From an uncultured Bacilli bacterium (GTDB taxonomy: Bacteria > Bacillota_I > Bacilli_A > RF39 > UBA660), in the NCBI GenBank assembly GCA_934132925.1, contig CAKPAL010000001.1, positions 1 to 58,026 of the forward strand: a stretch of DNA of 58,026 nucleotides. The letters run 5' to 3'. Under the pieces are notes generated by a model. That model did no database searches. It was given only the letters and a program-made list of their open reading frames with translations, and was not told where the DNA came from. A program made the position numbers and the translations under genes. Below are positions 32,597-37,831 of the stretch, one piece after another (the first letter of the stretch is position 1; every line of letters starts with the position of its first letter).

Positions 32597-33313
32597 ATGA
32601 AAAAAATTAATGTATTATTTATTATTGTAGGTATTATTTCTTTTTTGGTAGCGGGTTATATTATTACGGATAAGATATTGGCAAGAAATATTAATGTAGA
32701 GATAGATGAAGAGAAAGAACTTGGGACCGCTAATGAATATTTGGCAAAAATTGGTTCTCCACTTGGATGGCTTATTGTTAAAGAGGGTATCGATATGCAG
32801 GATGATAATGGTAAGTATAAGCCTAGATATAATTATGATTATTTAAATAGTATAGAAAATAAACAATTATTTACGATGGAATATATTTTAAGTTATCCGG
32901 ATAATGAGAGTCAGTTTGTAGTGTTATCAGCGGGTGATTATGAAAAGATTGATGTATTTCCTACTGGGGATTTTACATTGGCTTATTTAGACTATAAATC
33001 TTTTAATGAATATTATAGTGAATTATTTGGTAAGAATTTTAATATTGATAAGGCTAAAAAGGGTAATACTAAGTATGATAAGGATTATGTTTATTATGAT
33101 AATAGACGTCCTGGTAGTAATGGTGTATATGTTTCTATGATTACTAGTGATAAGGTTTGGTATAAGAATGGTGAGTATATTGCTAATGTTAAGGTAACTT
33201 ATAGTACTAGATTAGTGGACATTACTGGTGTAAGTGATAGTACTGGTATTGTTACTTATACTAAGAATAGTGATAATGCTATTATATTAAGGTCATTTAT
33301 ATTAGAGAAGTAA
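32597..33313 (+). CDS. membrane-anchored extracytoplasmic protein, unknown function
   Basis: 238 aa with an N-terminal TM. RBS GGAGAGGTG. No recognised motifs. Confidence 0.5.
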   Translation: MKKINVLFIIVGIISFLVAGYIITDKILARNINVEIDEEKELGTANEYLAKIGSPLGWLIVKEGIDMQDDNGKYKPRYNYDYLNSIENKQLFTMEYILSYPDNESQFVVLSAGDYEKIDVFPTGDFTLAYLDYKSFNEYYSELFGKNFNIDKAKKGNTKYDKDYVYYDNRRPGSNGVYVSMITSDKVWYKNGEYIANVKVTYSTRLVDITGVSDSTGIVTYTKNSDNAIILRSFILEK

Positions 33314-33326
33314 TTCTCTTTTTTCT
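33304..33326 (+). terminator. short terminator candidate
   Basis: AGAGAA-gtaa-TTCTCT followed by T6. Confidence 0.45.
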
Positions 33327-33327
33327 A

Positions 33328-33356
33328 TTGTAAATATATTTGTTTTATGGTAAACT
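33328..33356 (+). promoter_or_regulatory. promoter candidate for the leader ORF and TasA-like gene
   Basis: TTGTAA - 17 nt (ending in TGg) - TAAACT. Confidence 0.45.
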
Positions 33357-33389
33357 TAATTTGTAAGGTAAAGAGAGGAGGACCCCTTC

Positions 33390-33488
33390 ATGATAAACAA
33401 TAATGTTAATTTAAATAGATTAAGCAATATTAACCACAAGTTAACTCAAAATTATAAAATGGGGGGGGGGTTGTTTATCTTATTATAA
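33390..33488 (+). CDS. 32-aa leader-type ORF containing the G10 tract (not in ORF track)
   Basis: Very strong RBS AGAGGAGG 6 nt upstream. Translation MINNNVNLNRLSNINHKLTQNYKMGGGLFILL; the GGG codons come from the G10 run. Confidence 0.4.
   Translation: MINNNVNLNRLSNINHKLTQNYKMGGGLFILL
33461..33470 (+). repeat. G10 homopolymer tract
   Basis: Ten consecutive G at 33461-33470. It is the only long G/C run I saw in this AT-rich window. Confidence 0.95.
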
Positions 33489-33514
33489 ATAAAAGAAATA
33501 TAGATAAAATAATT

Positions 33515-33567
33515 AAAGACTATGAAATAACTAATAGAAATATTAGTAATTTTTCATAGTCTTTTTG
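33515..33567 (+). terminator. long bipartite hairpin: terminator or attenuator upstream of the TasA-like gene
   Basis: AAAGACTATGAAA (33515-33527) pairs perfectly with TTTCATAGTCTTT (33552-33564). An inner ACTAATA-gaaa-TATTAGT stem sits in the loop. A T-run follows, then RBS GGAGG at 33572. Confidence 0.65.
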
Positions 33568-33583
33568 TAATGGAGGTAAGTAT

Positions 33584-34642
33584 ATGGAAAAAGAAAAGAA
33601 GTTTATGATAATTGGAGTATTTATATTATTAATAACTTTAGTAGGAGCAGCAGGAACTTATGCTTGGTTTACTTGGAGTAGTACTAGTAATACTAATTTA
33701 ACTATGTCAATTGGAGCATCATCTGATGTAATATTTAAAACTGGTAATGATATAAGTACTAATAAATTAGCACCAGTATTTAATTATACTGATGGAGAAA
33801 AAACTAGTTTTACTATAACTAATAAAAGTACTACTAGTTTTAGTTATAGAATATCATTAAATATTACTAGTATTGATAATGAATTAAAGAATAGTACATT
33901 AAAATATAAACTAGTATCAAATAATACTACAATAACTGAAGGAGACTTTAGTAATATTGAAAATACTAATAAGTTATATGAAGGAGAATTATCTAAAGGT
34001 AATATTAGTTATATCTTTTATCTATATATTAATGGCAATGAAGAAAATGATCTTAATATGATAAATAAATCACTAGTTGGTACAATAACAGTAGCAGAAG
34101 CAACTGCTACATATGAGTTAACTAATGAAGATGGTACTACTTATACACCATCATATAATGGTTATGGGTCAAAAGTGGTTAAATCAAGTGCGCCTCTTAG
34201 TAAATTTAAAGAAGTAAAAGTAGATGGAGTAACTGTAGATAGTTCTAACTATACATTAACAGAAGGATCGACAATAGTTACCTTTAAAGAATCTTATCTT
34301 AAAACATTAAGTGAGGGAGAACATACATTCAAGATAATATCTAATGATGGCTTTGCTTCAGGTAAAATAACTATTAAGAATGTTAAATTAATTGAATTTA
34401 AGGTTTCTTTAGATGTACAAACTGATAGTTTTAAAGCAGAAGATGGTATGACTTGGAAACAATTTATAAACTCTAGTTATAATGTTGATAGTAGATTTAA
34501 AATAGTTGATGGGAAGGCGGAAGATACAATTGTTCAAATGGCACCATTGGCCCCTTTTTATATTAATATTAATGAGGATGATTTGATTATTAATGAAGGT
34601 CATTATTATAGCGTTAATGGTAAAGTTTATACTTCAAGTTGA
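33584..34642 (+). CDS. TasA/camelysin-like secreted protein with a SipW-type signal peptide
   Basis: N-terminus ...LITLVGAAGTYAWFTWSS resembles the SipW-cognate signal class (G-T-aromatic-A-x-F). The rest is a beta-rich N/T/S-rich body. Confidence 0.55.
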   Translation: MEKEKKFMIIGVFILLITLVGAAGTYAWFTWSSTSNTNLTMSIGASSDVIFKTGNDISTNKLAPVFNYTDGEKTSFTITNKSTTSFSYRISLNITSIDNELKNSTLKYKLVSNNTTITEGDFSNIENTNKLYEGELSKGNISYIFYLYINGNEENDLNMINKSLVGTITVAEATATYELTNEDGTTYTPSYNGYGSKVVKSSAPLSKFKEVKVDGVTVDSSNYTLTEGSTIVTFKESYLKTLSEGEHTFKIISNDGFASGKITIKNVKLIEFKVSLDVQTDSFKAEDGMTWKQFINSSYNVDSRFKIVDGKAEDTIVQMAPLAPFYININEDDLIINEGHYYSVNGKVYTSS

Positions 34643-34703: not shown

Positions 34704-34771
34704 ATATCTTATGATTATTTATGAATAGATTATAGGCTATTCATAAGAAGAAAAGATGATGGCTTTTCTTC
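34704..34771 (+). repeat. two-hairpin intergenic element, copy B (upstream of rpsB)
   Basis: ATATCTTATGATT, then hairpin 1 TTATGAATAG/CTATTCATAA (identical arms to copy A), then hairpin 2 GAAGAAAAG/CTTTTCTTC. A TTCACTTTTAAATATAA tail follows. Confidence 0.6.
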
Positions 34772-34941
34772 ACTTTTAAATATAAAATATAGTAAAATTG
34801 TTTACTTATTTGGCATAATATGATAATATATATATGGCTTTTCAAAAAATATACACAAGTATTGATTTAATTATCCTAGTGCCTTATGGTGGATGTTAGA
34901 GAAGAGATATTTGGAAGCAAAACGAAAGGAGAGTGTTTAAT

Positions 34942-35874
34942 ATGACAGTAGTATCAATGAGCTATTTGTTAGAAGCAGGAGTTCACTTTGGTCATCAAAC
35001 TAAAAGATGGAATCCTAAAATGAAAGAGTATATTTATAACTCTAGAGATGATATTTATATCATAGACTTACAAAAGACAGTTGCTAAAATAGAAGAAGCT
35101 TATGAAGCTTTAAATAAAATTGCCGCTGATGGAGGAAAAGTTCTATATGTTGGAACTAAGAAACAAGCACAAGAAGTATGTAAAGAAGAAGCTGAAAGAA
35201 GTAATATGTATTATATGACTGAAAGATGGTTAGGTGGTACATTAACTAACTTTAGAACTATCAGAAGAAGAGTAAATCGTCTTGAAGAAATTGAAAAGAT
35301 GGAAAAAGATGGTACTTTTGATAGATTACCTAAGAAAGAAGTAGTAGGACTTAAGAAGGAATATGAAAAGTTAAATAAAAACTTATGTGGTATTAGAGAA
35401 ATGACTAAATTACCTCAAGCTATTATTATTGTAGATTCTACTAAAGAATATAATGCAATAAGAGAAGCTAAAAAGTTAGGTATTCCAGTATTTGGTCTTA
35501 TCGACACTAATTGTGATCCTGATGATGTAGATTATGTACTTCCTGGAAATGATGATGCTGTAAGAAGTATTAAAGTTGTACTTGGTTCTTTAACTAATGC
35601 TATTATTGAAGCTAATGGTGGAACAATTGTTGATTATGTAAGTGAAGATGATAAAAAACCTTCTAAAGAAAAATCTTTTGCTAAAAGGGATAAAAAAGAA
35701 GTAAAAGAAGATAAAGAAGAAAAGTCTGTTATTGTAGAAGATAATGAAGATGAAAAGCCAGAATTAGATTTAAATATCTTAACAGTAACTGAACTTAGAG
35801 ACCTTGCTAAGAAAAGAGAAATTAAAGGTTACTCTAAAATGAAAAAAGAAGAATTAATTGAAAATTTAAAATAA
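34942..35874 (+). CDS. rpsB: 30S ribosomal protein S2 with a C-terminal K/E-rich linker and Rho_N/SAP-like extension
   Basis: I prefer the ATG at 34942 (RBS AAAGGAGAG). [19 protein letters not shown] and [11 protein letters not shown] are present. About 75 extra C-terminal residues end in [30 protein letters not shown]. Confidence 0.95.
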
Positions 35875-36836: not shown

Positions 36837-37217
36837 ATGTATGATTATGACTTATATAGTCCAGTTGATAGTTCTATGGCAGTTTGGCCTATAATTATCG
36901 GATGTCTATTGGGAATAGTTTCAATAGTTAGCTTATGGATAATATATAAGAAGGCTGGCAAAAAAGGTTGGGAGGCTATAGTTCCAATATATAATACAAT
37001 AGTATTAATTGAAATTGCTGGATTACCTTTATGGTATTTTGCTTTATTCTTTGTTCCTTTTGCTAATATATATGCAATATTTAAGATATATATAGAATTG
37101 GCACATAGATTTGATAAATCGACTGGCTTTGGGGTAGCAACAGTTTTCTTTAGTATTATTTGTCTACCAATATTAGCATTTAATAATGATTTAGTGTATA
37201 ATAAAAAAGTAGATTAA
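36837..37217 (+). CDS. DUF5684-like small membrane protein
   Basis: IIYKKAGKKGWEAIVPIYNTIVLIEIAGLPLWYF is a core motif shared with the convergent neighbour. Confidence 0.55.
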   Translation: MYDYDLYSPVDSSMAVWPIIIGCLLGIVSIVSLWIIYKKAGKKGWEAIVPIYNTIVLIEIAGLPLWYFALFFVPFANIYAIFKIYIELAHRFDKSTGFGVATVFFSIICLPILAFNNDLVYNKKVD

Positions 37218-37282: not shown

Positions 37283-37831
37283 TTAGTCTACTTTTTTTCC
37301 ACAATTTTCACAAAACTTAGCATCTTTCTTTAATTTGATGCCACAACCTAGACAATATTTTTCTGAACTATTATTGGTGTTATCATTAATAGGACCAGTT
37401 GGATTTACTTCGATATTTTTGTCATAAACATATTTATCAGAGAAACCAAAGATTATTATCATGATGTAATTAAATAAGGCTCCTAGTAAGGCTGTTGGCA
37501 TAGTGTTTATTTTCATTTTTTTTGCTAGATTCCAGAAGATGCAGAAATAAGCAAAGGTACTAGCAAGATTGGTTAGGATACTTAAGACCTCTATTTTAAG
37601 AATACTTAAAATACTGCCTGATATTGCTATTAAAAAAAACCACCAATTTAGACCTGCTACTTCAGTAAGTGTGTAGGTATTGTAAAATGGGATAAGGGCC
37701 TCCCAACCATTTTTGCCAGCTTTTTTAAATAATTTCCATAGGGCTATTGTATATATGATATAGATGGTTACTACGGCAATAATAGCAATGATAGCTCCAC
37801 TAAATAAAAATGTAAATAAAGCGTATTCCAT
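37283..37831 (-). CDS. DUF5684-like membrane protein with a C-terminal zinc-ribbon
   Basis: LFKKAGKNGWEALIPFYNTYTLTEVAGLNWWFF core. The C-terminus reads CLGCGIKLKKDAKFCENCG. Confidence 0.6.
   Translation of the reverse strand: MEYALFTFLFSGAIIAIIAVVTIYIIYTIALWKLFKKAGKNGWEALIPFYNTYTLTEVAGLNWWFFLIAISGSILSILKIEVLSILTNLASTFAYFCIFWNLAKKMKINTMPTALLGALFNYIMIIIFGFSDKYVYDKNIEVNPTGPINDNTNNSSEKYCLGCGIKLKKDAKFCENCGKKVD

Follow-up and report, generated by a model that had tools for sequence, protein, structure and literature searches.

We analysed a stretch of 58,026 nt (27.4% GC, hereafter the window) at the start of contig CAKPAL010000001.1 of an uncultured Bacilli bacterium. Around the element described here the genes run in the order murE, DUF1015, a gene for a 238-aa protein, a short leader module, a gene for a secreted protein of 352 aa and rpsB. 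The leader module is the subject of this work. It consists of a promoter-like element, a Shine-Dalgarno (SD) sequence, a short open reading frame (ORF) that carries a run of ten G residues, and a terminator-like hairpin lying directly before the secreted-protein gene (Table 1). An initial annotation of this DNA had suggested that the G tract gates the hairpin by slipped-strand changes. According to the comparison of many related loci presented below, the translation of the leader appears to be phase-variable, and we discuss how this could switch the gene that follows.

Table 1. Features of the leader module and its surroundings (positions in the window)
Feature	Position	Strand	Remarks
Small terminator-like hairpin and T-run	33304..33325	+	Stem of -5.5 kcal/mol, then U-run
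Promoter-like element	33328..33356	+	-35 TTGTAA (33328-33333), 17-nt spacer, extended -10 TGgTAAACT
Leader SD, GAGGAGG	33375..33381	+	8 nt upstream of the AUG
C-rich pyrimidine tract, CCCCTTC	33383..33389	+	Between leader SD and AUG; predicted 5' strand of stem P1
Leader ORF, G10 reading	33390..33488	+	32 aa; truncated class, stop 26 nt short of the hairpin
Small hairpin P2, TTAAC-CACAA-GTTAA	33430..33444	+	Within the leader ORF
G10 homopolymer	33461..33470	+	Gly codons of the leader ORF; predicted 3' strand of P1
AT-rich spacer	33471..33514	+	Holds both out-of-frame stops
Terminator-like hairpin P3 and U-run	33515..33566	+	In-frame leader stop TAG (33557-33559) in the 3' arm
Gene SD GGAGG (33572-33576) and ATG (33584)	33572..33586	+	Begin 8 nt past the hairpin
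Secreted-protein gene, 352 aa	33584..34642	+	SipW/TasA-type signal motif, beta-sandwich, Ig-like/CBM_X2-like domain
Terminator-like hairpin closing the 352-aa gene	34747..34771	+	Terminator scan and folding

The promoter-like element, the strong ribosome-binding site and the 32-aa leader ORF were verified on the sequence at the coordinates initially given for them. The -10 hexamer (33351-33356) is preceded by TG at 33348-33349, as read from the sequence, and the leader transcript is predicted to start at about 33363-33365. This element was not among the calls of a generic promoter scan of the window; a block of the form TTGnnn...TATGaTAttAT is kept 5' of most of the related modules. On the upstream side, the 238-aa gene (GAGAAGTAATTCTC TTTTTTCT) ends at 33313, by the small hairpin, which insulates the module from transcription coming from that gene. 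On the downstream side, the SD and ATG of the secreted-protein gene are so close to the large hairpin that there is no room for a promoter of its own, and the promoter scan found no plus-strand promoter-like sites between 33390 and 33584. Every transcript of the gene has, therefore, to pass through the hairpin and its U-run.

The G10 tract is the sole long G/C homopolymer of the window, as had been noticed from the start: a run count found no other run of G or C of six or more, and only ∼0.0003 runs of ten would be expected from the base composition. Reading of the frames confirmed the stops previously read by hand for G9, G10, and G11. With ten G residues the leader stops at TAA 33486-33488 and with nine at TAA 33490-33492, in both cases 22-26 nt before the hairpin (hereafter, truncated), and with G8 or G11 the frame remains open to the TAG at 33557-33559, inside the 3' arm. 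The hairpin itself, P3, was also found as initially described, with a perfect outer stem of 13 bp (33515-33527/33552-33564) and a nested inner stem of 7 bp (33530-33536/33541-33547), followed by a T-run (TCTTTTT) and the ATG of the gene. The two stems are joined by a 2/4-nt internal loop, and the inner one is closed by a GAAA tetraloop. P3 folds at -19.8 kcal/mol (z = -6.7) and none of 200 shuffled sequences folded as well, while the gene-end terminators of the window are weaker, with -5.5 to -9.4 kcal/mol. A search of Rfam 15 gave no match at the gathering thresholds across the window and chance-level matches only in 33300-33640 (E up to 10).

The exact 50-nt hairpin was found in 6 contigs from 5 species-level metagenome-assembled genomes (MAGs) of uncultured gut bacteria ('Tenericutes/Bacilli/Clostridium sp.'), in all of which the flanks had diverged. 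A looser hairpin pattern identified >120 metagenome contigs among the matches listed, mostly from the human gut. About 12 of the metagenome matches are due to chance, being soil or marine contigs that lack the inner stem, and the only match in a viral contig (L013 in our numbering of loci) is also a chance one, within unrelated coding DNA. In total, >100 gut-metagenome contigs carry the module. Despite the strong divergence of the flanks the order of its parts is kept: promoter, SD, C-rich tract, ATG and often a small GTTAAC...GTTAA hairpin in the 5' half, and in the 3' half a run of G7-G12 or another G-rich element, 30-50 nt of AT-rich spacer, the hairpin followed by its U-run, the second SD and a secreted-protein gene. 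The leader SD and ATG are present in essentially all modules, the divergent ones included, so that translation of the leader is predicted throughout. Furthermore, all 60 runs of eight or more G or C found in 777 kb of sequence (103 related loci) fall in the module, and these poly-G runs are thus exclusive to it. Homologues of the downstream gene that lack the module (L009, L010, L011, and L136) have plain promoters, indicating that the module is an add-on regulator.

Comparison of the hairpins gives further information about P3. In its main variant both sides of an inner-stem pair are changed, from A-U to G-C (ACTAATA/TATTAGT to ACTAGTA/TACTAGT). Single changes give U.G wobbles in L134 and L127, in the outer stem in the case of L134, a locus that was found independently of the hairpin pattern. 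The loops are GAAA, GUAA, GCAA and GAGA, all of them of the GNRA type, with GAAG as the exception.

Modules without a homopolymer are common (L016, L027, L041, L059, L096, L106, L122 and others). At the position of the tract they have AAGAGGGG, AAGAGGAG, AAGAAGGG or AAGGTGGG. In 17 of 23 distinct modules of this kind the leader runs through the hairpin to the TAG of the 3' arm, as in the peptide MKVLNIVNYKLIKRSYKSNLSIINNNINKDYEITNRNISDFS, which ends there, and 3 more stop inside the hairpin; one of these leader peptides is present on at least 1000 contigs. In the case of the poly-G modules, a change of tract length shifts the frame predictably, one length class in three restoring the through-hairpin frame in 52 of 54 non-duplicate modules and the other two classes placing the stop 16-44 nt upstream of the hairpin. 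In the sequences at hand, 20 of these modules are in frame and 34 truncated, a proportion that is not different from one third (p = 0.57) but is different from that of the homopolymer-free modules (Fisher p of 0.005, or 5e-5 if stops within the hairpin are counted as reaching it). The same frame stands out in the spacer: of 48 distinct spacers 47 leave it open, whereas the other two frames are open in 0 and 1; distinct spacers are here greedy representatives, as single-linkage clustering is unusable in such AT-rich sequence. For five mutually dissimilar spacer types, each with a 13-23% chance of holding an open frame, the joint probability by shuffling is ∼2e-4. The complete in-frame leader has ∼40-56 codons and its stop lies 19-34 nt upstream of the AUG of the gene in all modules (∼24 nt in the geometry of the explanation that we favor). 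In the homopolymer-free relatives it is thus the through-hairpin frame of the leader that is conserved and looks ancestral, and these modules imply an attenuator that is not stochastic. A conserved Asn/Ile-rich stretch, IINNNI, directly precedes the hairpin and may be relevant in this respect.

Tract length varies widely among close relatives. Modules grouped at 95% identity or more outside the tract span G7-G12, and 6 of the 10 poly-G clusters hold both frame states; one of these clusters includes G7, G8, six cases of G9, G10 and G11. L001 and L002, whose downstream protein is identical to that of the window, have G9 in place of the G10 of the window, and two loci orthologous to that of the window are in frame with a shorter leader (L134) or carry G7 (L135). 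In exact peptide look-ups, the G10 leader of the window is present on 3 contigs and its G9 version (33 aa) on 10, while the related leader backbone MNNNINLNRLNNVNYKLTQNYKM was found with G9 on 41 contigs, with G10 on 4 and with G7 on 4. The repeats are long enough to slip (about 7 or more) both in the window, with G10, and in the relatives, with G7-G12. The question of whether tract, leader and hairpin are conserved in relatives, which the initial annotation had posed, can thus be answered positively: the module recurs and its tract length varies among near-identical copies. We regard both the hypervariability of the tract and its toggling of a conserved leader frame through the hairpin as very likely. 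On the strength of these comparisons, it is well supported that the leader ORF is translated in a phase-variable manner across the terminator-like hairpin.

For the consequence of this variation we favor, with a confidence that goes only slightly beyond an even chance, a terminator gated by the leader ribosome, in which the phase-variable leader cassette would switch the secreted-protein gene. The promoter would drive a transcript that opens with the short ORF and its strong SD. When the leader is in frame, the leading ribosome would cover the 5' arm of P3 while the polymerase transcribes the U-run, the hairpin would not form and transcription would read through into the gene (ON). After slippage of the tract by one or two bases, translation would stop well upstream, the hairpin would fold and most transcripts would end there (OFF), the class to which the G10 allele of the window would belong. 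Slipped-strand mispairing at the tract would render expression heritable yet reversible. In fact, a ribosome that stops close upstream is known to repress intrinsic terminators, as in the pyrBI and pyrE attenuators of Escherichia coli (PMC4824070; PMC5021804). At the E. coli terminator tR2, insertion of one G moved the stop from 28 to 5 bp and lowered termination from ∼90% to <10%, and full termination returned beyond a stop distance of ∼27-30 nt (PMC4824070). The out-of-frame stops of the module, 16-44 nt before the hairpin, fit these thresholds. Folds of the leader show P1, P2 and P3 and no competing partner for the terminator arms that could act as an antiterminator, so the module would work by direct occlusion, as pyrBI does, and not in the manner of trp. 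The initial proposal that ribosomes enter the hairpin or not depending on the length of the tract therefore stands with regard to the frame logic and the length variation in relatives; for the remainder of it, we infer that the hairpin terminates, that ribosomes relieve this termination and that in frame means ON, the last because the homopolymer-free modules are in frame.

The same phase-variable leader could act after transcription. Ribosomes in frame would unwind the hairpin and end translation 24 nt ahead of the gene AUG, with an effect through re-initiation, a standby site or protection of the mRNA, and in the truncated state the folded hairpin would be a target of RNase III or a block to the 30S subunit. 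We consider this unlikely, although it is the most probable of the alternatives. The leader stop is close enough to the gene AUG for the gene SD to be within reach of the terminating ribosome, a general effect of re-initiation downstream of such peptides has been proposed (PMC4833913), and the hairpin is a near-perfect duplex of ∼20 bp, which resembles a substrate of RNase III. Moreover, a simple sequence repeat (SSR) hairpin with a G-rich arm in the 5' untranslated region of Haemophilus influenzae hmw is processed by this enzyme (PMC12721329). However, the SD and AUG of the gene lie outside the hairpin, at least 8 nt downstream, and are not sequestered by it, and the conserved U-run after the stem is needed by a terminator and has no role in translational coupling. 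In addition, the distances of the out-of-frame stops match the measured threshold for restored termination, which is in favor of the ribosome-gated terminator.

It is also improbable that the short ORF encodes a functional micro-protein of 40-56 aa, phase-varied by the poly-G tract, with the hairpin being either a structured stretch of its coding sequence or its own terminator and the downstream gene being expressed regardless. The strong SD, the high conservation of the C-terminal residues KDYEITNRNISDFS and the public annotation of the ORF as a gene for a 'hypothetical protein' could be taken in this sense. However, the spacer shows no codon-position periodicity, and so no excess of variation at third positions (entropy 1.08, 1.24, and 1.06 at positions 1, 2, and 3), and the compensatory change in the inner stem alters several residues together, rewriting ITNRNIS to VTSSNTS. 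Between leader types, the N-terminal halves share neither sequence nor length, and four leader peptides searched against Pfam gave no match. Besides, the module is always joined to one superfamily of secreted proteins, without space for a separate promoter. The lack of periodicity and the stem changes that rewrite the peptide indicate that an open frame plus a hairpin is conserved and not a protein, and selection appears to act on the open frame and the RNA structure, a point in favor of the ribosome-gated terminator.

A further possibility is that the G tract acts as RNA, pairing with the C-rich tract (stem P1) or with a C/U-rich small RNA in trans and thereby setting leader translation or mRNA stability, and that its length tunes this pairing gradually, as described for RepG and tlpB in Helicobacter pylori (PMC8295292). 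The C-rich tract of the window, which had gone unmentioned in the initial annotation, is one of 2 C-rich pyrimidine heptamers in the 58 kb, and the enrichment is general: the modules have a mean of 4.0 C in the 10 nt that precede the leader AUG, compared to 0.48 for 54 ordinary genes in this DNA (p = 1e-17). In nearly all modules the G-rich or poly-G element finds its best duplex partner in this tract. P1 is present in the minimum free energy and centroid folds of the window leader, in which the predicted 5' end pairs with the region after the tract, and an unrelated complementary pair (UAAUAAAU/AUUUAUUA) takes its place in the L057 group. A permutation test of cognate against non-cognate partners gave p = 0.0004 over all modules. 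Pairing by the tract, however, leaves unexplained why a single frame is open across the spacer and the hairpin in 47 of 48 spacers and why the homopolymer-free modules are almost uniformly in frame, so we give this reading a small probability as an alternative; P1 is likelier to be an extra layer of the same switch. As such, it would curb leader initiation and probably limit it to a co-transcriptional window, and the poly-G tract probably evolved from the G-rich 3' strand of P1.

We regard as very improbable that the palindrome is a DNA site, either the operator of a dimeric regulator or a recombination site, and that the poly-G variation is incidental or an artefact of assembly or sequencing. 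The hairpin is near-invariant while its flanks diverge, and the loci are mosaic: 22 clusters of leaders and 21 clusters of gene 5' ends occur in 30 combinations that are joined at the hairpin, where paralogous loci seem to recombine with one another. The same leader is found with different genes and vice versa (L004/L105, L066/L100, L096 and others), with the junction at the equivalent of 33564-33572 of the window. Many contigs (L016, L022, L054, L068, L114, L116, L121 and many more) end ∼134 nt from the hairpin, which is about the k-mer length of assemblers; the module together with the gene 5' end behaves as an assembly-breaking repeat that hides such loci in MAGs. Nevertheless, a block of 50 nt that is shared between loci is expected to give rise to such mosaics by ordinary homologous recombination, no recombinase lies next to the modules, and the two modules of L003, 6.6 kb apart, are direct repeats around housekeeping genes. 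With only 24 nt between them, the arms are too close to flank an invertible segment, and the U.G wobbles and the GNRA preference are signatures of a structure that works as RNA. As for an artefact, the G7-G12 spread exceeds consensus errors and the frame statistics would not be explained by it. An invertible-DNA or recombination-site switch of the cwpV or vsa/vsp/vpma type was rejected on the absence of a flanking recombinase, the spacing of the arms and the direct orientation in L003.

Several observations weigh against the ribosome-gated terminator. With regard to the alleles, both forms seen for the leader backbone of the window, G10 and G9, belong to the truncated class, and an exact look-up of guessed in-frame peptides, which may differ from the true ones by a residue, recovered no in-frame allele of this backbone or of the related backbone MNNNINLNRLNNVNYKLTQNYKM, so that the truncated class is the assembled majority at the locus. 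With regard to the structures, a generic terminator scan of the window, the rules of which require more G-C pairs and a shorter loop than P3 has, did not call it. RNAalifold on 26 modules recovered P2 and P3 with thin covariation, namely one compensatory pair and a few wobbles in P3, where few stem positions vary and the search pattern had dictated the outer arms, which limits the covariation that could be seen. P2, found in 25 of the 26 aligned modules, is invariant there and shows no covariation; L003 has a P2-shaped hairpin of different sequence (GAACA...TGTTC) and L134 lacks P2. P1 was not recovered in this alignment because the tract region mis-aligns, and its permutation test has no significance when the homopolymer-free modules are taken by themselves (p = 0.29), as pyrimidine and purine tracts all cross-pair. 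In addition, the sequence of P3 is conserved far beyond the needs of pairing, partly owing to the way in which the loci were collected, which leaves room for a sequence-specific recognition. With regard to the mechanism, RNA polymerase can outrun ribosomes in Bacillus-type Firmicutes such as Bacillus subtilis (PMC13323073), and such loose coupling would weaken a ribosome-dependent antitermination unless a pause site exists; none was identified in the leader. Ribosome-mediated attenuation is nevertheless documented in B. subtilis (PMC4191407; PMC9226507). Finally, the two states could be blurred if the polymerase slips or the ribosome shifts frame on the G run.

The module shares traits with several known systems. 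Like the pyrBI and pyrE attenuators, it has a short leader ORF that runs into or through a putative intrinsic terminator, where a close ribosome would block folding and the distance from stop to hairpin would decide. However, those attenuators respond to UTP-sensitive pausing or to the speed of translation, whereas the input here would be a heritable frameshift in a poly-G tract, with no pause site identified and in a low-GC Firmicute-like host in which coupling may be loose. As in lgt, opc and pilC of Neisseria and the poly-G/poly-C loci of Campylobacter (PMC2192423; PMC3315296), a G tract of 7-12 nt varies in length and toggles a frame, and is linked to surface or secreted proteins of which a genome has several copies. 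In those loci the repeat lies in the regulated gene or in its promoter, while in the module it is placed in a separate leader ORF, the peptide of which seems irrelevant, and the effect would be relayed through an RNA hairpin. In a manner comparable to that proposed here, the cwpV gene of Clostridioides difficile (PMC5914908) encodes a phase-variable surface protein of a Firmicute whose OFF state is due to an intrinsic terminator in the 5' leader; there, a recombinase-driven inversion changes the leader, whereas in the module the terminator sequence is constant and the occupancy by ribosomes would change. The (ATCTTTC)n repeat of H. influenzae hmw (PMC12721329) and the target of RepG in H. pylori tlpB (PMC8295292) resemble the module, as it is predicted to work, in being transcribed, variable leader repeats whose RNA pairs with a complementary pyrimidine- or purine-rich partner and acts after initiation of transcription. 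These elements are, however, untranslated and act gradually by pairing or processing, while the tract of the module lies in a conserved, SD-equipped ORF with a conserved frame logic. The bmrCD and vmlR genes of B. subtilis (PMC4191407; PMC9226507) have a leader ORF before an intrinsic terminator in a low-GC Gram-positive, and the position of the ribosome controls read-through, but they sense antibiotic-stalled ribosomes by means of alternative antiterminators, and no alternative structure is evident in the module, which is not known to carry a stalling signal either. A search of the full-text literature returned these analogues (cwpV, hmw, RepG/tlpB, Rho-linked invertible switches and attenuators with upstream ORFs) and no description of this element.

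The proteins encoded behind the modules all begin with KK, followed by a hydrophobic segment and a motif like G(S/T)TYAxFT, a start similar to that of SipW-dependent signal peptides, and fall into at least 7 subfamilies. In the 352-aa protein of the window this N-terminal signal reads KK-hydrophobic-GTYAWFTW. An aromatic residue at position P2' of the signal peptide is found in TasA (PMC10269814), and the gene had been called 'TasA-like' on first inspection. This name is weakly founded, its sole link being the signal-peptide motif, which scores below the NCBIfam cut-off for SipW-type signal peptides (TIGR04088; 13.3 bits against a cut-off of 19, E = 0.073). The Pfam search gave no TasA or camelysin match and only weak CBM_X2 and Shr-like matches below cut-off, and a Foldseek search of the Protein Data Bank (PDB) returned generic sandwiches of the PA14/CBM-like kind, none of them TasA and none with a TM-score above 0.33. 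The AlphaFold2 model is of the beta-sandwich type, with the N-terminal sandwich alone being confident (mean predicted local distance difference test score, 59). In the PDB sequence search the sole match was a chain annotated as 'IgA protease' (9qa6_A, E = 7.5e-15), in an immunoglobulin (Ig)-like region that covers positions 193-309 of the family profile, or residues ∼190-265 of the window protein. The family comprises at least 582 clusters with a conserved N-terminal part and swapped C-termini, and longer homologues add DUF285 or leucine-rich repeat C-termini. Taking the proteins and their leaders together, it is conceivable, with a likelihood that we place a little short of even, that the module is a portable 'ribosome-gated terminator' cassette, with SSR phase variation housed in a dedicated leader ORF and several copies per genome in a clade of uncultured human-gut Bacilli, that independently switches the members of this large, recombining family of secreted beta-sandwich proteins.

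Other observations concern the setting of the modules. In one lineage (L024, L035, L076, L078, and L095) the leader SD lies 1-2 nt past the stop codon of ftsZ, whose product ends in DIPPFLRDRDNY, and the usual promoter cannot fit; these modules would be transcribed together with ftsZ or from a promoter inside it. L012 has its own promoter at the position equivalent to these leaders. One NCBI record places a homopolymer-free leader peptide in 'Candidatus Gastranaerophilaceae' (Melainabacteria), other records giving 'Bacilli bacterium', and reflects either a mis-binned contig or a wider distribution of the module. Two 481-aa proteins from the Joint Genome Institute annotated as 'outer membrane protein TolC' (P0159 and P0160) share a 90% cluster with a 44-aa leader peptide, which is probably a clustering artefact. 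In the window, the rpsB gene for ribosomal protein S2 (34933-35874) has 313 codons, with a lysine/glutamate-rich C-terminal extension that matches the Rho_N (SAP-like) family of Pfam, according to the precomputed annotation that L001 and L002 carry for their identical gene. Downstream of tsf there are two convergent paralogues of DUF5684 membrane proteins, at 36837-37217 (+) and 37283-37831 (-), the second one with a C-terminal zinc ribbon.

The module joins two known principles in a manner that has not been described previously and is widespread in an uncultured gut lineage. If the proposed mechanism is true, it would be the first SSR switch that acts through translation-dependent antitermination, and its homopolymer-free relatives would reveal the underlying non-stochastic attenuator, for which the stem between C-tract and G-tract over the leader start is the candidate site of a physiological input. 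The gain or loss of one G in a throw-away frame would decide whether a terminator is recognized, leaving the regulated protein and its promoter untouched. Such a cassette could be moved before any gene, and the leader/gene mosaics suggest that this occurs naturally. As a compact natural system it would allow us to ask how closely ribosomes trail RNA polymerase in low-GC Gram-positives, and as a part of ∼200 nt it could serve for heritable bistable expression in synthetic constructs. It would also account for the recurrent assembly breaks and the frameshifted 'hypothetical' mini-genes at these loci. Finally, the module points to an extensive and hitherto invisible surface variation in gut bacteria known only from metagenomes, with a bearing on their interactions with the immune system, with phages and with their niche.

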